This document shows, in pieces, positions 2 through 11,924 of a DNA stretch of 18,746 nucleotides (position 1 is its first letter; each line of letters opens with the position of its first letter). The DNA comes from a phage. The stretch is taken from the NCBI GenBank assembly GCA_019844455.1, contig GCA_019844455.1_3938.2, one strand, 5' to 3'. The notes beneath the pieces are model-generated. The model saw only the letters and a list, made by a program, of their open reading frames with translations. It ran no database searches and was not told the origin of the DNA. A program made the translations under genes and the position numbers.

Positions 2-391
2 CGTGCAAACGAAATCCTGAAGCGTCTGTATGAAATGGGGTTTGCAAGCTCTAACGTGGTGTTTGGTGTAGGCTCTTACACTTACCAGTACATGACTCGT
101 GACACCTTTGCATTTGCTGTCAAAGCAACTCTTGCAAGCATTGGTGGCAAAGAGATTATGCTTGCAAAAGACCCTAAAACAGATAGTGGTGTTAAGAAAT
201 CTGCCTTTGGTGGTGTAGCACCTATGTGGGATGGTGAGAATTTGAAAGCTGTAGATGGCTATGGATTCCAGAGCTTTGCAGATGCACTTGAACATCCAGC
301 TTGTGCTTTACGTTTAGTCTTTAGCGACTCTGAGCAGTACGGTTACACAACTCTTGGTGATATTCGAAATAATATTGACAAGCAGCTTTAA
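2..391 (+). CDS. nadV: nicotinamide phosphoribosyltransferase (NadV/NAMPT-like), C-terminal fragment; 5' end lies outside the window
   Basis: Frame is open from the window edge to TAA at 389-391. The segment NVVFGVGSYTYQYMTRDTF...KDPKTDSGVKKSAFGG matches, from memory, the conserved NAMPT C-terminal pattern (FGxG...TRD...KDP..D...KK). Not searched. Confidence 0.7.
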   Translation, partial: RANEILKRLYEMGFASSNVVFGVGSYTYQYMTRDTFAFAVKATLASIGGKEIMLAKDPKTDSGVKKSAFGGVAPMWDGENLKAVDGYGFQSFADALEHPACALRLVFSDSEQYGYTTLGDIRNNIDKQL

Positions 392-405
392 AAGTATATG
401 ATAAG

Positions 406-428
406 AGGCTCCTACGGGAGCCTTTTTA
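406..428 (+). terminator. rho-independent terminator after nadV
   Basis: Perfect 7-bp stem aggctcc/ggagcct (406-412 / 417-423) with tacg loop, followed by a T-run (423-427). Confidence 0.6.
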
Positions 429-444
429 ATTTCTGGAGAAGATT

Positions 445-780
445 ATGAAAATCAAAGAGATGAACATCAACATTGTCTTAGAAGAACGTTGGGAGAATAT
501 TAAGAAACCTGAAGATGGTAAAAAGTTCCTTAACAAAATTTTAGTAGCAGCTAAAGAAGAACTGAATGGCAAGATTGCAGCAGCAGTCACAATAAAAGTT
601 TGTGTAAAAGGTCTTCCAGACAACCACCAATTTGCGCTTGACGAGTTTAAAAAAAGCTTCTACAATCCAAACAAACAGATGCTTGAAAGTAACTTTGCAG
701 TATCTACAAGTATCGTCCATGACAGAAGCTTTATCCTTTACAAAAACATGAGGGGTGAGTCATGCAAGCATATTGGGTAG
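445..780 (+). CDS. hypothetical protein (111 aa)
   Basis: ORF with GGAG 7 nt upstream of ATG 445; same strand and spacing as the flanking genes. No recognisable motif. Confidence 0.55.
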   Translation: MKIKEMNINIVLEERWENIKKPEDGKKFLNKILVAAKEELNGKIAAAVTIKVCVKGLPDNHQFALDEFKKSFYNPNKQMLESNFAVSTSIVHDRSFILYKNMRGESCKHIG

Positions 781-938
781 AAATTTTACTGTCACTTGGT
801 AGTGTAGCAGTCCTTGTTTATCTTCTTTGTAAGTACTTTGCAGAACACAAGAAGTGTGACTACTGTAACGGAGAAGGGTATACAAGAGCAGGTTGTTGCC
901 CTATGTGTGGTGGTTCTGGTAAAATGTTTAATAAGTAA
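762..938 (+). CDS. small membrane-anchored protein with two DnaJ-type CxxCxGxG zinc-finger repeats (58 aa; absent from the ORF track)
   Basis: Hand translation: MQAYWVEILLSLGSVAVLVYLLCKYFAEHKKCDYCNGEGYTRAGCCPMCGGSGKMFNK, stop TAA 936-938. Hydrophobic helix at residues 5-23, then CDYCNGEG and CPMCGGSG. Purine-rich stretch aggggtgag at 751-759 ends 2 nt before the ATG; overlaps the end of the 445-780 ORF by 19 nt. Confidence 0.5.
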   Translation: MQAYWVEILLSLGSVAVLVYLLCKYFAEHKKCDYCNGEGYTRAGCCPMCGGSGKMFNK

Positions 939-966: not shown

Positions 967-3333
967 ATGCGCATGGTAAATGACCACGCAGAAGTGATTA
1001 AGAGTTCAACTTCTTTAGAGACGTCTCAAGCACAGATTACAATGACACCTGAGATGTTCAGCCTTTTGAGTTCTGGTGTATATACCTTTAAAGAAAGGGC
1101 AGTGATTCGTGAACTGTCATGTAACGCAGTAGATGCTCAGAAAGAAGCTGGAAAAGAGAACATTCCGTTCCATGTGCATTTACCTACTCGTTTTGAGCCT
1201 TACTTTGAAGTTCGTGATTTTGGAACTGGATTGACTCATGATAAAGTTATGAGTTTGTACCTAAACTACGGGGCTTCTACGAAGAATGACTCTAATGACT
1301 ACATTGGTGCAATGGGTATCGGCTCAAAATCCCCATTTGCAATTGCTCAGTCATTCACAGTATCTAGCTATGTTGATGGTGTTGTTAATAAGTACTCTGT
1401 TTATCTTGAGAATGGTATCCCTCAAGTAACTAAGCTGACCACTAACCCAACAAAAGAACCTAATGGTTTAGCTGTACGTGTGGCAGTTGCTGACCACCGT
1501 ATCTCAAAGTTCTTTGAAGAAGCTGGAAATGTGTACTCATACTTCACTGTAAAACCAGAAAGTAATATTGAGTACGACGATGTATTAGCAGATATGAACG
1601 TCATTGCCCGTGAAGAAGGTGTTTATGATGCCATGATTCATAAGCAAAGCTGGCGTTCTAGTGGTAACAGGACAGAGTTTAATGTGGTGATGGGTAATAT
1701 TGCCTATCCAGTGAACATGGAAGCATTACTTGGTGATGATTTCTTCAAAGTCTTGCCAGAGTTTTTCCGTAGGAGCGTAGACCTTGTAAACATCTACATG
1801 CCTATTGGTTCAGTTGCTATAGCAGCTTCTCGTGAAGCATTGCAGATGAATGATACGACAAAAAATGTTATCATCGAGGCTACCAAAAAGATAACTGAAG
1901 CAATTACAAAGGATGTTATCAAGAAAGTTAATAGCCAACCTACACTCATGGATGCTGCACAGGCTTATGCAGAGCTACGTTTGAACTCACGAGAGATGTT
2001 TAATGCTGTGTGTCCAAAGCTAGAGTGGGGAGGCATTAAGCTTGATTCTCTGGAAGAAGAATTGTTAAACATTCGTCGTGGAATTATCTACGCAGAAGAC
2101 GGCTCAGTCATTTATGAACGTGACGGTAAAGGCAATATTAAGGTTGATAGGAACGGGAACAATATCCCTAAAGTAGATTATCTTTATGACCCAGTTGCTT
2201 ATGTCAAGTTCAACTCTTTAGAGAGTAAGATTCGTGCAACATCGCTTTCCTACACTCAAGAGGCAAGTATGTTCAATATCTTTGGCGCAATGCGTAAAAG
2301 CCAAATTGAACAGTTTTTGTTTGTTATAAATGACCGTCGCAATAAAAACGGTACTGAGAAGACTGTAGGACGCAATCAAATCTTGCGTGGTGCATGTCGA
2401 GACTATGCCAGTGAGTCAGGCCTGTTCCACAGATACAACGGTATTGTGTTTGTATTCTCGACTGAAAAAGAGTTAGACGACCTAATCAATCTACACAAAC
2501 TTGATAAAAGCTTGTTAAAGATTGTGAAGATGTCTGATAAGGAACACCATTATCAGCGTAAAGAAGCTGTAAGAGGTGTTGTAAAACTCTGGAAAGCTGT
2601 TCCAGCAGAAGGTGTAGCTTCCTATAAAGAGGTGTCAGAAGACTTAGACACAATTGAAGAACCTCAACTTTATATCAAGGCAGTAGGTGATACTGTTGAT
2701 GGCGAATGTTTTTGCTCATCTCCAGAAGATGTAGCTAAGTCAGTTGCCAATGTCATTGGGAAGACAGTCTATGTTTTCCGAAAAGCAAATTGGAAAAAGA
2801 TACCAGAAGACTGGATTGAGGTAGATGAGAAGCTCTTGAACGACAGCTTAACTGATGTTCACTGGATTAATCATAACAGATATATGACACGTATCTATAT
2901 GAATGGCGTCCTTGACCTCACAAGCAGTTGGATTATTGCCAGAAACTTTACGTTCAATAACAGGAAGATTTCTCGTGGCTATTGCTATTCACGAGACACA
3001 AACAAAACTATCTTCTTAGAAGGCAATGAAGATGCTGTTGAGGCAATGTTTGGTAAAATCCAATACGTTGCTGCACCGTTTGCATACGCTTACACTATTA
3101 GTAGATTGCAAACTTTGAAAGAATGCCTTGACAATGATACAAAGTTGTACAAGAAAATTAAGAAAGCTGGTGACCGCATGGTCATTAAGGTGACAAACTA
3201 CCTTTCAAAAAGAAAACAAGAAAACTTCTTGCTTTCTCATTTAGATTGGAATAAAGTGTCACCTATTGAAGTGAGTAAGTTCTTAGGCTTTGATGTGAAG
3301 TGTGTTCCAGAAGGGACTACAATTTACGATTAA
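967..3333 (+). CDS. rIIA: rIIA-like protein (membrane-integrity / lysis-inhibition protector; N-terminal GHKL-like ATPase region)
   Basis: 788-aa ORF with RBS aagagga upstream. The N-terminal blocks AVIRELSCNAVDA and DYIGAMGIGSKSPFAIAQSFTVSSY parallel T4 rIIA (recalled as AVVRELITNMIDAH and DFIGGFGLGSKSPF...SITSY). Followed directly by an rIIB homolog. Confidence 0.9.
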   Translation: MRMVNDHAEVIKSSTSLETSQAQITMTPEMFSLLSSGVYTFKERAVIRELSCNAVDAQKEAGKENIPFHVHLPTRFEPYFEVRDFGTGLTHDKVMSLYLNYGASTKNDSNDYIGAMGIGSKSPFAIAQSFTVSSYVDGVVNKYSVYLENGIPQVTKLTTNPTKEPNGLAVRVAVADHRISKFFEEAGNVYSYFTVKPESNIEYDDVLADMNVIAREEGVYDAMIHKQSWRSSGNRTEFNVVMGNIAYPVNMEALLGDDFFKVLPEFFRRSVDLVNIYMPIGSVAIAASREALQMNDTTKNVIIEATKKITEAITKDVIKKVNSQPTLMDAAQAYAELRLNSREMFNAVCPKLEWGGIKLDSLEEELLNIRRGIIYAEDGSVIYERDGKGNIKVDRNGNNIPKVDYLYDPVAYVKFNSLESKIRATSLSYTQEASMFNIFGAMRKSQIEQFLFVINDRRNKNGTEKTVGRNQILRGACRDYASESGLFHRYNGIVFVFSTEKELDDLINLHKLDKSLLKIVKMSDKEHHYQRKEAVRGVVKLWKAVPAEGVASYKEVSEDLDTIEEPQLYIKAVGDTVDGECFCSSPEDVAKSVANVIGKTVYVFRKANWKKIPEDWIEVDEKLLNDSLTDVHWINHNRYMTRIYMNGVLDLTSSWIIARNFTFNNRKISRGYCYSRDTNKTIFLEGNEDAVEAMFGKIQYVAAPFAYAYTISRLQTLKECLDNDTKLYKKIKKAGDRMVIKVTNYLSKRKQENFLLSHLDWNKVSPIEVSKFLGFDVKCVPEGTTIYD

Positions 3334-3412: not shown

Positions 3413-4522
3413 ATGACTACTAAAACTAAAGCACAGATTGACGCAGAAATTTACAAACTGGTTAAAGAAGGTAAGCTGACTAAAACAGCTATTGCACAGA
3501 AATTTAATACTTCAACCCGTTCAGTCGGTCGTGCTGTAGAGCGTCACGAAGCAACCTTAAAAGGGAATAAGAAGGCAACTTCTACACCAGCTACGAAGAC
3601 TTTGAAACAAGTTGCTAAGACCTTTAAGAAGAAAGCTGACAAACCAGTTGAAAAGGTCGTTAAAGATGTTGTACAGAAAGCTCCAGTAAATAAACTGCAC
3701 GAAGCTATGCAGAAAGATGACAAGATTGAGTACATGATTACTGGTGATTCTGTAATTATGACTTATGGTTCAGAATCTGAAATTGTTGAGTCTACTCATC
3801 CGAACTATCAAGAGATTGTAGTTCATGTTGTGAAAGGTGAGTTCAAGAAAGCATTTGAACTGATGAACATTCGTAAGTCTATCGAAAACTTCACTCAGGG
3901 TGCTATCACAATCAAAGGCGACAAGCTATTCTACGGTGCTGTTGAGATGCGTTCTACTCTGGTTGACCGTATTCTTCACATGATGAAAACTGGTGATAAA
4001 GGTTTTGAACGACTTGTAATGTTCTTCGAAAAACTGATGGAAAACCCATCTAAAGATTCTGTAGAACAACTTTGGGGATTTGTATCTCACCTTGATGTTG
4101 AAATTGATGAAGAAGGTTACATCATTGGTTGGAAGAAAGTCTCTACTCGTGAAGGCAAGCTGGTTGACTCTCACACCTACAAAGTGCCTAATGATTTGGG
4201 TAACATTGTAGAAATGCCACGTTGGATGGTTGATAATAACCGTAACGTAACTTGCTCTCAAGGTCTTCATGTTGGTGCTTGGGATTATGTTCGTTGCTTC
4301 TCAGGTGATACAATCCTGAAGGTTCGCGTACATCCACGAGATGTTGTATCTGTTCCAACTGATTACAACGATATGAAGATGCGTTCCTCTCGTTATGAAG
4401 TTGCAGCAATCGTTGATAATCAACGTAAAGTGCTGGAAGCATGGGACGGTAAGACTGAAGCTTTGCATGTCATCGTTGGCACTGCTGGTGAACTCATCTC
4501 TCAACGTAAACGTGAAATCTAA
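3413..4522 (+). CDS. rIIB: rIIB-like protein
   Basis: 369-aa ORF, RBS gagag 7 nt upstream. The C-terminal two-thirds parallels T4 rIIB as recalled: ...MRSTLVDRIL..., ...ENPSKDSVEQLWGFV..., ...CSQGLHVGAW..., KVRVHPRDVVSVPTDYNDMKMRSSRYEV (T4: KVKVHPRDVVSIPIDYNDAKMR). Confidence 0.9.
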   Translation: MTTKTKAQIDAEIYKLVKEGKLTKTAIAQKFNTSTRSVGRAVERHEATLKGNKKATSTPATKTLKQVAKTFKKKADKPVEKVVKDVVQKAPVNKLHEAMQKDDKIEYMITGDSVIMTYGSESEIVESTHPNYQEIVVHVVKGEFKKAFELMNIRKSIENFTQGAITIKGDKLFYGAVEMRSTLVDRILHMMKTGDKGFERLVMFFEKLMENPSKDSVEQLWGFVSHLDVEIDEEGYIIGWKKVSTREGKLVDSHTYKVPNDLGNIVEMPRWMVDNNRNVTCSQGLHVGAWDYVRCFSGDTILKVRVHPRDVVSVPTDYNDMKMRSSRYEVAAIVDNQRKVLEAWDGKTEALHVIVGTAGELISQRKREI

Positions 4523-4622: not shown

Positions 4623-5171
4623 ATGAAGAAATTGATTCTAGGTTTGTGCTTAATGTTTACAGCACACTTATCTTATGCAGTTGACTGCCCAGAGCTATCA
4701 ATTAGCCAAAAAGTGAACATGTTAAAAGCTTACCAGTATGGTGAGAATAACATGGGTAAAGGTTGGGGTATCACTCTAGCAGCTATAGCCTTACAAGAGT
4801 CAGAGTTAGGTCTGAAGGTAGAAAATAAAAAGACCCATGACTATGGTATCTTCCAGAATCACTTGAAGACTGTTGTAAAGCGTAACAAAATTAGTCCTAA
4901 TGTTGCTAAAAAGAAACTCTTAAAAGATTTTGACTATGCCGCAAAAGAAACACATAAAGAGCTTGAGTTTTGGACGAAGGTACACGGTCACCCAAAGTCA
5001 AAGAAGACTTTACAAAAAGTTTTAGCATCATATAATGCTGGGTATTCGTACAGAATCCCTAAAGCTAAGAAATACTCTCAAGATGTCTATAACAATATGA
5101 AAGTTATCGCTCAATGTGAATTTGCAACAAACATTTCTAAGGTAAATCATGAAAAAATTAAGAAAGTCTGA
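4623..5171 (+). CDS. secreted lytic-transglycosylase-like protein (SLT-domain-like, N-terminal signal peptide)
   Basis: RBS aggag. N-terminus MKKLILGLCLMFTAHLSYA looks like a Sec signal peptide. Blocks IALQESELG, DYGIFQ and ASYNAGYS resemble the SLT family ES / GLxQ / AYNxG motifs (from memory). Confidence 0.55.
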   Translation: MKKLILGLCLMFTAHLSYAVDCPELSISQKVNMLKAYQYGENNMGKGWGITLAAIALQESELGLKVENKKTHDYGIFQNHLKTVVKRNKISPNVAKKKLLKDFDYAAKETHKELEFWTKVHGHPKSKKTLQKVLASYNAGYSYRIPKAKKYSQDVYNNMKVIAQCEFATNISKVNHEKIKKV

Positions 5172-5844
5172 TGAAGTCCTGTGCCACGCTTATGACTTGC
5201 ATCCTCATGAGTTATGTCTTGATTCCTGTGTATGGACTCCAGAACAGTGCAGGGATTTTGAAGACACTGCAAGAGAAGTTGTATGTTCACTTGAAGAGTT
5301 CCACACATCAGAACCCATTGTGAACGTTGTGGACAAAGAGACTGGACAAACTATAGGTGTAAGGCGTGATAGTTTAGTCATAGTCAATAAAGACCTTGTA
5401 GAAAAAGGTAACCTCATCTTAGCAGATATTGATGGCGTTCTTACAAATTTTAATCACGAAGATTGCTCAACGGAATTGACTGATGGGTCATTCTCACAGT
5501 ACACTAATCTTCTTGATTCTGTAAGAGCAAAACCAACATATGTTTTCAACATTATTGATGCAATTGCAAATCATGCAGTAGTTGGACTCTTGACAGCAAG
5601 AGGTGAATCTCAGAGAATACCTACTGAGATGTTTTTAAGGCACAATATAGAGCACGATTACTTGCTTTTTATGCGTGGTTTTGGAACTAACTCTATAAGT
5701 GCAGAAAGTTTGAAAGTGAGGATGATTCAGTCTTGCATTCTTCCTTACTTTAATATAGTATGCTTTATAGAAGATACAGAGAATAATGTTCAGAAGGTAA
5801 ACAGAATCCTTCCACACATTAAAACTATGTTAGTTAAACATTGA
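5149..5844 (+). CDS. HAD-superfamily phosphatase-like protein with a Cys/His-rich N-terminal extension
   Basis: LILADIDGVL fits HAD motif I (hhhDxDGV), GLLTARGES fits motif II, and CFIEDTENN fits the acidic motif IV. The 90-aa N-terminal region is Cys/His-rich. RBS aagg present; overlaps the previous gene by 23 nt. Confidence 0.55.
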   Translation: MKKLRKSDEVLCHAYDLHPHELCLDSCVWTPEQCRDFEDTAREVVCSLEEFHTSEPIVNVVDKETGQTIGVRRDSLVIVNKDLVEKGNLILADIDGVLTNFNHEDCSTELTDGSFSQYTNLLDSVRAKPTYVFNIIDAIANHAVVGLLTARGESQRIPTEMFLRHNIEHDYLLFMRGFGTNSISAESLKVRMIQSCILPYFNIVCFIEDTENNVQKVNRILPHIKTMLVKH

Positions 5845-8174: not shown

Positions 8175-8960
8175 ATGGGTATTGTAAAAATAATTAATGG
8201 TGATATCTTTGCCGCATTTGATAAAGGTAAGTTTGACATCATCGGTCACGGTTGCAACTGTATGAATTTAATGGGTGCAGGTATCGCTGACAAGATTTCT
8301 AAACTTTACCCAAAAGCATATGAGACCGATACAGAAGTTTATCTGTATGCAGGTGGTATAGGACACAAACCCTGTGAAAATTTACTGGGTAATTTCTCTG
8401 TAGCACGTTTAAAACAAGGTCGTATAGCTAACCTTTACACTCAGCTTAAGACTGGTAAAGATGCCCGATACAGTGCTTTAGAGTCATCTTTGAAACAGCT
8501 TAACAGATACTGTGAAGTTAATCAGTTGAAGAAGGTTGGTTTACCTATGATTGGTGCAGGTATCGGTGGACTTGAACCTCAAGCCGTCACAGTTATCATT
8601 AATCAGGTGATGAAGAGTGTAGATGTTTATCTGTATGTCTACGAAGGAGAGATGTACCACAAGTTACGCTCAGGTTGGAATAACTACTGTGAACCAGAAT
8701 ACTTTGCAGGTGTAGTAACGTTCAAAGATGATACAGTTACCCTCTTCAGACGAAGAAAAGGTAAGATACATCAAAGTAACCCTCCGGTTGAGAAGATGTC
8801 TCTAAGTAACGCTCTAGTTACCCACCTGTCGAAGAGCAATCACAGGATAGCCGTAACATTTGGCAGTGATGCAGATACATATATTTATGCAAGAACTGAT
8901 GAGGATATCGAGACGGTCTTCTCTTCACCAGAAGTTACCTTCTTAGACGCAAAGAACTAA
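8175..8960 (+). CDS. macro-domain (ADP-ribose binding/processing) protein with a C-terminal extension of about 100 aa
   Basis: IINGDIF...DIIGHGCNCMNLMGAGIADKI parallels the macrodomain core (recalled from YmdB as VQGDIT...VNAANpSLmGGGGVDGAIH). Later LPMIGAGIGG parallels FPAISTGVYG, and YLYVYE parallels YFVCYD. RBS gggagag upstream. Confidence 0.65.
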   Translation: MGIVKIINGDIFAAFDKGKFDIIGHGCNCMNLMGAGIADKISKLYPKAYETDTEVYLYAGGIGHKPCENLLGNFSVARLKQGRIANLYTQLKTGKDARYSALESSLKQLNRYCEVNQLKKVGLPMIGAGIGGLEPQAVTVIINQVMKSVDVYLYVYEGEMYHKLRSGWNNYCEPEYFAGVVTFKDDTVTLFRRRKGKIHQSNPPVEKMSLSNALVTHLSKSNHRIAVTFGSDADTYIYARTDEDIETVFSSPEVTFLDAKN

Positions 8961-11509: not shown

Positions 11510-11835
11510 TGACTGGTATCACTTCAATCATTGCCATTTTCGCGCTATATAAGGCATATAAAGCCTATAATCTAGCAAATAAGGCAATCACACAGCAGGT
11601 TAGCAATAGCCTTGTAAAAAGCTTTCTAGGGCGTCTCAGTGATGAGCAAATAAAGCGGTTAGAAATGAGCTTCAGATTCAAAGCGAAAACCTATCAGATA
11701 AGTGACATCTTCAAGGATGATTTCCAGTTAGTCGATGATTATAATTCTCTGATAAATGCTTTAAATATCAGTGACTTAAAAGACTACTACGCTGTAATTG
11801 TTCAAGAGTTGAGCAAACGAAAACAAAACTGTTGA
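11503..11835 (+). CDS. hypothetical protein with N-terminal hydrophobic segment (110 aa)
   Basis: ATG overlaps the upstream stop (ATGTTAATG); RBS agagga upstream. N-terminus GITSIIAIFALY is hydrophobic. The stop TGA (11833-11835) sits inside the TTGACA of the next module. Confidence 0.5.
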   Translation: MLMTGITSIIAIFALYKAYKAYNLANKAITQQVSNSLVKSFLGRLSDEQIKRLEMSFRFKAKTYQISDIFKDDFQLVDDYNSLINALNISDLKDYYAVIVQELSKRKQNC

Positions 11836-11924
11836 CACTGATTTTTAGATAGATTAAATTACACATCAACGGGGAGGGAACAACCTTCCCACTAAATAAA
11901 GTCCTTAAACTAGGAGATTCTAAA
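11832..11924 (+). promoter_or_regulatory. intergenic module type B, copy 1 (sigma70-like promoter, 5'-UTR hairpin, shared RBS region)
   Basis: TTGACA 11832-11837, 17-nt spacer, TAAATT 11855-11860, hairpin gggaa-caacc-ttccc (11876-11890), then actaaataaagtccttaaactaggagattctaaaATG. Confidence 0.55.

Follow-up and report, generated by a model that had tools for sequence, protein, structure and literature searches.

The window, as we call the whole 18,746-nucleotide stretch of phage DNA analysed here, begins inside a gene (Table 1). On the plus strand, the reading frame that starts at base 2 stays open for 129 codons up to a TAA stop at 389–391. The gene continues past the 5′ end of the window, and the program-listed ORF at 35–391 represents its tail only. 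By comparison with relatives, the 129 encoded residues are the C-terminal end of a 593-residue protein of the NAMPT family. The fragment matches Pfam PF04095 (NAPRTase) with an E-value of 2.5e-10 (41 bits, cut-off 20.8) and NCBIfam NF006629 with an E-value of 2.3e-26 at model positions 345–462 of 465, the C-terminus of the model. The latter score (92.5 bits) stays below the NF006629 cut-off of 405 because only 129 amino acids are present. Two PHROG families of nicotinamide phosphoribosyltransferases align with the fragment at their C-terminal ends (phrog_15800, E 4.1e-57; phrog_448, E 2.4e-39). The full-length protein of typing phage 1 (TP1), a close relative, scores 469 bits against NF006629 and also matches PF18127. 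We judge this family likeness to be far beyond chance, and it assigns the protein to the NAMPT/NadV superfamily of type II phosphoribosyltransferases (PF04095 plus PF18127, NF006629). The original prediction had recognised a NAMPT/NadV C-terminal pattern close to rIIA and had proposed a family search with the complete ORF. The Pfam, NCBIfam and PHROG matches, with C-terminal model ends for NF006629 and PHROG, bear out the pattern, as does the search with the full-length relative; rIIA does lie downstream, with two small ORFs in between.

Table 1. Features of the window discussed in the text; gene names of the NARP1 pathway are explained below.
Feature	Position	Strand	Remarks
Very probable 3′ end of Namat (NARP1)	2..391	+	residues 465–593 of 593; annotated nadV / nicotinamide phosphoribosyltransferase
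Selectivity-clamp helix (SCH) motif GSYTYQYMTRD	71..103	+	G488–D498 of the full-length protein
Sigma-70-like promoter match	375..402	+	TTGACA, 16-nt spacer, TATGAT; 11/12; consensus scan only
Terminator-like hairpin and T-run	403..431	+	GAGGCTCC-TACG-GGAGCCTC-type stem, 10 pairs, GC-rich
Small ORF	445–780		between Namat and rIIA; phrog_4262
Small ORF	762–938		between Namat and rIIA; phrog_3931, small CxxC protein
rIIA	967–3333		downstream; phrog_612, E 4.7e-189
rIIB	3413–4522		downstream of rIIA
Macro-domain protein, 261 aa	8175..8960	+	candidate accessory gene; "phosphatase" in relatives; bas63_0095 in Bas63

The putative promoter overlaps the last codons and the stop codon of the fragment, and possibly drives the two small ORFs together with rIIA and rIIB. 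The terminator-like hairpin starts 12 nt past the stop codon and probably marks the end of a transcription unit composed of the gene at the window edge and its upstream partner (Namat and Adps, respectively, see below). The window gave no match in Rfam or tRNA scans. No RyR-domain accessory gene (RyDEP) was found beside Namat in the window or in the ORFs immediately upstream in TP1. The window also includes a gene-free stretch of 1.65 kb that carries an array of iteron-like motifs.

By sequence similarity, the window derives from a myovirus of the Felix O1 type (Felixounavirus). Matches to its first 4.6 kb were obtained in 277 phage records, nearly all of which are Felix O1-like myoviruses with hosts in Escherichia, Salmonella, Shigella and Citrobacter; the closest over this region are the E. 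coli O157 typing phages with approximately 97% identity. The window as a whole has no exact match among deposited genomes, where the best matches are mosaics at 89–96%. The gene fragment is identical to the corresponding part of TP1 at both the nucleotide and the protein level (100% each, residues 465–593 of 593). It shares 96.9% of its nucleotides with KhF3 and 95.6% with gene product 80 of Bas63 (Escherichia phage JohannRWettstein, MZ501086.1), a phage that belongs to the same genus according to its database record. At the protein level, 123 of the 129 residues (95%) are identical to Bas63 gp80. The six substitutions are located in the C-terminal tail and the clamp motif is unchanged; the full-length proteins of TP1 and Bas63 are 98.3% identical. 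Substitutions relative to KhF3 and Bas63 are mostly synonymous, with dN/dS ratios of 0.13 and 0.14, respectively; against the identical TP1 sequence the ratio is undefined. These low values show that purifying selection acts on this region. One local difference concerns an additional ORF of 114 amino acids (phrog_20372) that directly follows the gene in Bas63 and TP1 but is missing from the window. A Pfam search with this ORF at E-values up to 1 returned only noise.

The same relatives reveal what lies upstream. In TP1, KhF3 and Bas63 the complete gene has 593 codons and is directly preceded by a Prs-like gene of 293 codons, annotated as ribose-phosphate pyrophosphokinase, that ends 45 nt upstream. 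All three phages share the order Adps–Namat–small ORFs–rIIA–rIIB. The Adps–Namat pair recurs in 259 records, of which 223 retain 80% or more of it. Annotation places an HNH homing endonuclease inside the matched region in some relatives, and a few have a Namat that is truncated or split into two ORF calls. For the 293-residue Prs-like protein of the relatives, the match to TIGR01251 ends at position 290 of the 309 in the model. This end point is consistent with the description of Adps as a truncated protein without the C-terminal alpha11–alpha12 module of PRPS (PMC13586617). The original prediction had placed a partner gene upstream, beyond the window, and had expected it to code for an NMN adenylyltransferase, while also advising a search for a PRPP synthetase gene in the same region. 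The position was right and the second search proved productive, but in the relatives (259 records) the partner is the Prs-like Adps instead of an NMN adenylyltransferase. A Pfam scan of 25 of the larger ORFs of the window gave no match to NMNAT, NadR or Nudix proteins, and none of these is annotated in the records of Bas63 or TP1.

This gene pair is known from the BASEL phage Bas63, where genes 79 and 80 led to the discovery of NARP1 (NAD+ reconstitution pathway 1) and constitute its founding operon, with gp79 as Adps and gp80 as Namat (Osterman et al., bioRxiv 10.1101/2024.02.11.579819). Adps is not a PRPP synthetase; it is an ADPR pyrophosphokinase that converts ADPR to ADPR-PP. Namat is a nicotinamide ADP-ribose transferase that produces NAD+ from ADPR-PP and nicotinamide without passing through NMN. 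Bas63 without genes 79–80 formed approximately 20-fold fewer plaques on cells with SIR2-HerA and suffered a deeper loss of NAD+. Wild-type Bas63 still overcame SIR2-HerA when the host had neither pncC nor nadR, and therefore an NMN route by way of these host enzymes can be ruled out for this phage. Since the Bas63 Adps "did not purify well", the enzymology was performed on homologues from SpbetaL1. The Prs-like enzyme of SpbetaL1 pyrophosphorylated ADPR and gave no measurable product in a PRPP-synthetase-type assay. For the Felix-type protein itself, the published evidence consists of in vivo genetics and metabolite data from Bas63. The same study lists the proteins of typing phage 1, KhF3, Felix O1 and Bas63 as "Adps-associated" Namat (Table S2) and their Prs-like neighbours in a companion table of Adps/Prs proteins (Table S1). 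The authors did not find NARP1 and NARP2, the KVP40 pathway that combines Nampt with Nmnat, together in any phage.

The structural basis for distinguishing Namat from Nampt was established by crystal structures of SpbetaL1 Namat with nicotinamide and with NAD+ (Lan et al., PMC12774641). The distinguishing element, termed the selectivity clamp, combines a variable loop, the SCL, with a conserved helix, the SCH. [quoted passage not shown] In SpbetaL1 Namat, G390, S391 and R399′ bind the NMN phosphate, and F392, Y396, T398′ and D400′ stack on the adenine of NAD+. The motif GSYTYQYMTRD encoded in the window is an exact fit to the SCH consensus, as expected for a Namat. The labelled sequences of Table S2 behave as the motif predicts. 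The Adps-associated proteins carry the clamp, be it in the form common to the window and the Felix-type phages or as GSYTYQYKSRD (crAss-like cr85_1), GSYTYQYVTRD (Vibrio phage ICP1) or GSYTTQYNTRD and GSFTTQFNTRD (Pectobacterium phages). In contrast, the Nmnat-associated protein of Caulobacter phage CcrSC contains GGMATADMDRD at this position. The aromatic residues of the clamp are absent from Nmnat-associated proteins and from cellular Nampt, and the Nampt form reads GG(A/G)LLQK, as in GGALLQKVDRD of the Xanthomonas campestris (Xcc) Nampt 7yqo.

Comparison with proteins of known structure gives the expected order. The full-length relative scored 431 bits against PDB entries 9w5w/9w5x (E 5.7e-128; 4e-23 with the fragment), 352 bits against 9ke8, 180 bits against Xcc Nampt and approximately 141 bits against human NAMPT. 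The entries 9w5w/9w5x (GSFTYQYNTRD, with F392 and Y396) are taken here as SpbetaL1 Namat because their residue numbers reproduce every residue named by Lan et al., and we suspect that 9ke8 (GAQTYQRNTRD) is the Nampt of KVP40 because its N-terminus fits a cloning primer. By these comparisons the protein is nearer to characterised Namat than to Nampt and is an ortholog of the experimentally tested Bas63 gp80, and the fragment corresponds to the C-terminal quarter of Namat.

We mapped the catalytic residues by hand from the PDB alignment onto the full-length relative, in which all positions before 465 lie outside the window. The reference residues in SpbetaL1 Namat were F189, R192, D215, the catalytic His, R306, D308, G360–D361, G390–S391 and R399. 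The relative keeps F195, R198, D221, the catalytic H251, R327, D329 and G458–D459, and the window itself holds G488, S489, T496, R497 and D498. The absence of NAMPT similarity or of catalytic residues had been named beforehand as grounds for abandoning the assignment; the similarity is strong and the residues are present. By analogy with the SpbetaL1 structures, the part of the protein encoded in the window would contribute the ribose-phosphate loop (G488–S489) and the adenine clamp (Y490, Y494, T496 and D498), and R497 would reach into the neighbouring active site of the dimer. The second clamp element, the SCL, is encoded beyond the 5′ end of the window. This loop reads S40-D41-K42-W43 in TP1 and Bas63, which fits the published description of the Bas63 SCL with Lys in third place and a stacking residue in fourth (PMC12774641).

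The Felix-type proteins and SpbetaL1 Namat share the GS-aromatic-T-Y-Q-Y-x-TRD helix and the catalytic residues, and they differ in several details. The Felix-type proteins are approximately 100 amino acids longer, with an insertion of approximately 77 amino acids (around 350–427) and another of approximately 15 near position 260. Clamp position 3 is Tyr instead of Phe, and the SCL presents Lys42-Trp43 instead of Arg40. A Pfam search with the 77-residue insertion at E-values up to 1 returned only noise. Cellular Nampt (human; Xcc 7yqo) has the catalytic core, the dimeric type II architecture and the TRD/DRD phosphate-binding element in common with these proteins, but it uses PRPP as a substrate, its clamp-equivalent segment makes no contact with adenine, and it is a much weaker match to the full-length relative than 9w5w. 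In vitro, SpbetaL1 Namat keeps about half of the PRPP-to-NMN activity of human Nampt (PMC12774641), and the Felix-type enzyme may also synthesise some NMN.

From these observations we consider it very probable that positions 2–391 represent the 3′ end of a Namat gene that belongs to a NARP1 pathway in a Felix O1-like phage. Gene identity, orthology to Bas63 gp80, the clamp motif, purifying selection and synteny in relatives are all established at the level of sequence comparison. The counter-defence phenotype and the independence from host NMN routes were demonstrated by others in Bas63 and would extend to the present phage by homology. Of the 593 codons, 129 lie inside the window; we infer that the present genome also contains the rest of Namat in undamaged form, preceded by Adps. 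The enzyme presumably shares the preference for ADPR-PP measured on the SpbetaL1 homologue. The pathway would then operate as follows. Host defences such as SIR2-HerA, type I Thoeris, DSR1/2 and SEFIR cleave NAD+ to ADP-ribose and nicotinamide. Adps, the Prs-like enzyme encoded beyond the window, would use ATP to convert ADPR to ADPR-pyrophosphate, and Namat, a dimeric type II phosphoribosyltransferase with Nampt fold, would replace the pyrophosphate with nicotinamide. NAD+ would thus be regenerated in one step, with neither an NMN intermediate nor an NMN adenylyltransferase. The clamp helix encoded in the window would stack on the adenine of ADPR-PP, and in this way favour ADPR-PP over PRPP.

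The original prediction had described a NadV that rebuilds NAD+ as a counter-defence, and this role agrees with the Bas63 data. Its chemistry, NMN formation followed by NMN adenylyltransferase, is that of NARP2 and does not hold. We still have to consider that the gene codes for a true NadV, which would draw on a phage PRPP synthetase for the PRPP that it turns into NMN and rely on a phage NMNAT (as in NARP2 of KVP40) or on host NadR/PncC for conversion to NAD+. Databases and HMMs do name the protein a nicotinamide or nicotinate phosphoribosyltransferase and its neighbour a ribose-phosphate pyrophosphokinase, the catalytic core is common to Nampt, and SpbetaL1 Namat makes NMN from PRPP in vitro. 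KVP40 NadV/Nampt, which acts together with the Nmnat NatV, belongs to the same fold family and likewise serves as a countermeasure to NAD+ depletion. However, the KVP40 Nampt prefers PRPP, makes NMN, requires its Nmnat partner and falls into the separate "Nmnat-associated" clade, whereas the Felix-type proteins are found in the Adps-associated clade; KVP40-type NARP2 also overproduces NAD+ even when no defence system is present. The success of Bas63 against SIR2-HerA in the pncC- and nadR-deficient host speaks against the host branch of this route. The phage branch is opposed by the lack of NMNAT, NadR or Nudix matches among the 25 scanned ORFs, by the records of Bas63 and TP1, in which none of these is annotated, and by the failure to find any phage that combines NARP1 with NARP2. 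The supply of PRPP is called into question by the activity of the SpbetaL1 Prs-like enzyme on ADPR and the blank PRPP-synthetase-type assay. Finally, the window encodes the aromatic Namat clamp instead of GG(A/G)LLQK. Taken together, this evidence makes a true NadV highly improbable.

Namat of the present genome could also be a remnant, truncated or split upstream of the window, with the fragment serving no current function. The first 464 codons do lie outside the window, and relatives with a truncated or split Namat exist; several relatives have an HNH endonuclease annotated in the Adps–Namat span (e.g., ST11, GE_vB_B1, ESCO56). On the other hand, the fragment is identical in nucleotide sequence to TP1, where the gene is intact, its substitutions relative to KhF3 and Bas63 are mostly synonymous with dN/dS of approximately 0.13–0.14, and most relatives (223 of 259) retain 80% or more of the Adps–Namat pair. 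Both the stop codon and the hairpin that resembles a terminator also occupy their normal place. On this evidence the loss of function is extremely improbable, and a functional Namat remains our reading of the locus.

This feature is already known, and NARP1 was first described in a phage of the same genus; the pathway itself gains nothing new from the present sequence. The NARP1 papers name Bas63, and not the genus Felixounavirus. The comparison does correct an annotation: in Felix O1-like phages, the "nicotinamide phosphoribosyltransferase" should be read as Namat and the "ribose-phosphate pyrophosphokinase" as Adps, and mislabelling of these two genes is a common error in this group. As a counter-defence, NARP1 acts broadly against systems that deplete NAD+ (SIR2-HerA, Thoeris, DSR1/2, SEFIR), and its presence is relevant to the choice or engineering of Felix-type phages for biocontrol or therapy.

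A further gene of the window may be connected to this pathway. The Macro-domain protein listed in Table 1 is encoded approximately 7.8 kb and 15 genes downstream of the operon, in the same early region. It matches Pfam PF01661 with 31.2 bits (cut-off 22) and phrog_335 with an E-value of 3.5e-112. The known NARP1 extension with a Macro-domain protein responds to the defence system aRES, which cleaves NAD+ to ADPR-1''-phosphate, a product that NARP1 cannot use (Osterman et al. 2026, bioRxiv 10.64898/2026.01.28.702374). According to the same study, 15% of NARP1 operons carry the Macro-domain phosphatase Adpp, an ADPR-1''-phosphate phosphatase that restores the pathway (NARP1-AP). The screen for Adpp covered two genes on either side of each NARP1 operon, and therefore a Macro gene in the Felix-type position would be missed. 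Table S1 of the aRES paper contains no Escherichia or Salmonella phage.

The protein encoded in the window falls into the same PHROG family as Adpp: phrog_335 was the best family for all four Adpp proteins tested. Its alignments span the whole of Adpp from Vibrio phage Gary (27% identity, E 4e-13) and of a NARP1-linked Macro protein from Pseudomonas phage PN09 (34% identity, E 4e-17), and it shares all 16 invariant positions of a five-sequence alignment. The arrangement differs from NARP1-AP of Gary, where the order is Adps–Adpp–Namat; in the window the Macro gene stands outside the operon and its product has an additional C-terminal extension of approximately 100 amino acids, for which a Pfam search at E-values up to 1 returned only noise. 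A Pfam search found no Macro domain in the ORFs immediately flanking Namat, and the locus does not represent an operon-linked NARP1-AP, in which the Macro gene is encoded in the operon, no more than two genes away.

It is possible, although we lean somewhat against it, that Felix O1-like phages run NARP1-AP with this unlinked protein as the phosphatase. The enzyme could turn the aRES product ADPR-1''-phosphate into ADPR, which would feed Adps and Namat. If so, the published screen overlooked approximately 250 Felix-type genomes among the 859 NARP1 pathways, the share of NARP1-AP lies far above the reported 15%, and resistance to aRES is to be expected of Felix-type phages. The unlinked Macro gene raises the question of a NARP1 extension against RES-type defences. 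The family is widespread, with phrog_335 occurring in 2,843 phage records that include T4-like phages (Tk.4, approximately 35% identity) and KVP40, and the protein of the window is at least as close to the T4-type Tk.4 Macro proteins as to Adpp. To our knowledge, T4-like phages do not carry NARP1. Standalone Macro proteins were reported in approximately 41% of myoviruses by Iyer et al. We also considered a hydrolase of the TARG1/OARD1 type, since 4j5r is the best PDB match of the Macro protein (E 5e-6), and rejected it because the matches to phage Adpp proteins are better. The positions of the catalytic Lys and Asp of TARG1 presumably align with Gln90 and a Gly in the protein of the window, a correspondence that we regard as tentative.

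Felix-type Namat differs from the crystallised SpbetaL1 homologue by an insertion of ~77 amino acids (residues ~350–427 of the typing phage 1 protein); a second, shorter insertion of ~15 amino acids is located near residue 260. No Pfam match was found for the ~77-amino-acid segment. Pectobacterium phage CB7 and crAss-like cr85_1 carry insertions at the same site that differ from the Felix-type one, and because these insertions differ, the site looks like an insertion hot spot.

Between typing phage 1 and Bas63 (MZ501086.1), the Prs-like partner gene Adps is only 77.5% identical and the neighbouring Namat 98.3%. In many relatives, the match to the typing phage 1 Adps-Namat pair begins only at nucleotide 276. 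From these alignments, the N-terminal part of Adps seems to occur in two allelic forms, with mosaicism inside the operon. Many Felix-like genomes have an annotated HNH homing endonuclease inside the Adps-Namat match span, and a few relatives (ST11, as well as ICP1 and Pectobacterium phages) have a Namat that is truncated or split into two called ORFs; example relatives for the HNH and split-Namat annotations are MN850603, KM657822, MF370225, MG969405 and OM386665. In typing phage 1 the two genes are separated by a hairpin, which may act as an attenuator within the operon or affect the stability of its RNA. Directly 3′ of Namat, typing phage 1 and Bas63 contain an extra ORF (phrog_20372) that is missing from KhF3 and from the window, here between positions 391 and 445. 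This ORF, for which Pfam returned no match, is a presence/absence polymorphism adjoining the counter-defence operon.

Coordinates of features in the window and in the records of typing phage 1 (L001) and Bas63 (L004)
Feature	Record	Position	Strand	Description
Adps	L001; L004	9,683–10,564; 3,247–4,128		Prs-like partner gene
Hairpin	L001	10,565–10,609		intergenic, Adps stop to Namat start; perfect hairpin GGGGCTTAAAAGCCCC, then ATTTT
Namat insertion	L001	~11,655–11,890		~77 aa, from comparison with SpbetaL1 Namat; corresponding part lies upstream of window
Extra ORF	L001; L004	12,445–12,789; 6,009–6,353		114 aa, phrog_20372, directly 3′ of Namat
Small ORF	window	762–938	+	58 aa, phrog_3931; hydrophobic N-terminus and CxxC...CxxC segment
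rIIA	window	967–3333	+	
ORF before kinase gene	window	4623–5171	+	182 aa, phrog_600; weak SLT lytic-transglycosylase match
Polynucleotide kinase	window	5149–5844		
Macro-domain protein	window	8175–8960	+	261 aa, PF01661; phrog_335 "phosphatase"
Gene-free stretch	window	~15,490–17,155		YTGTTAR array

Some 15 genes downstream of Namat, the window encodes a Macro-domain protein. Its homology to Adpp, the ADPR-1″-phosphate phosphatase of the extended pathway NARP1-AP, spans the full length of Adpp. The gene lies beyond the ±2 genes that were screened around each NARP1 operon (Osterman et al. 2026, bioRxiv 10.64898/2026.01.28.702374). T4 Tk.4 and KVP40 tk.4 are among the members of this broad Macro family (phrog_335); the window protein carries a C-terminal extension of ~100 amino acids, and this extension is found at full length only in ~258 records, mostly Felix-like.

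Further downstream, the plus- and minus-strand gene blocks meet convergently at a stretch of 1.65 kb without any ORF longer than 42 amino acids. This stretch holds 26 of the 42 YTGTTAR sites (CTTGTTAG / TGTTAAGA) in the window, for which chance predicts 21 ± 4 overall. Many of its sites are spaced by 11 nucleotides, inverted copies occur at 15,946 and 15,957, and GC skew changes sign from −0.39 to +0.42 across it. Rfam and tRNA scans gave no match in this stretch, and Bas63 has the same gene-free gap. The array may serve as an iteron/origin or for the binding of a regulator.

Residues ~30–140 of rIIA match NCBIfam models of HSP90-family, sacsin and BbrUII ATP-binding domains, all below the cut-offs (best E 2.9e-11), which hints at an N-terminal GHKL-type ATPase domain. 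The small ORF upstream of rIIA shares 19 nucleotides with the preceding ORF (445–780), and its product gives weak DnaJ zinc-finger-like matches, also below cut-offs. The SLT match of the phrog_600 protein (E 9e-4, 19.2 bits) falls under the cut-off of 21.3, and the polynucleotide kinase gene begins within its ORF.
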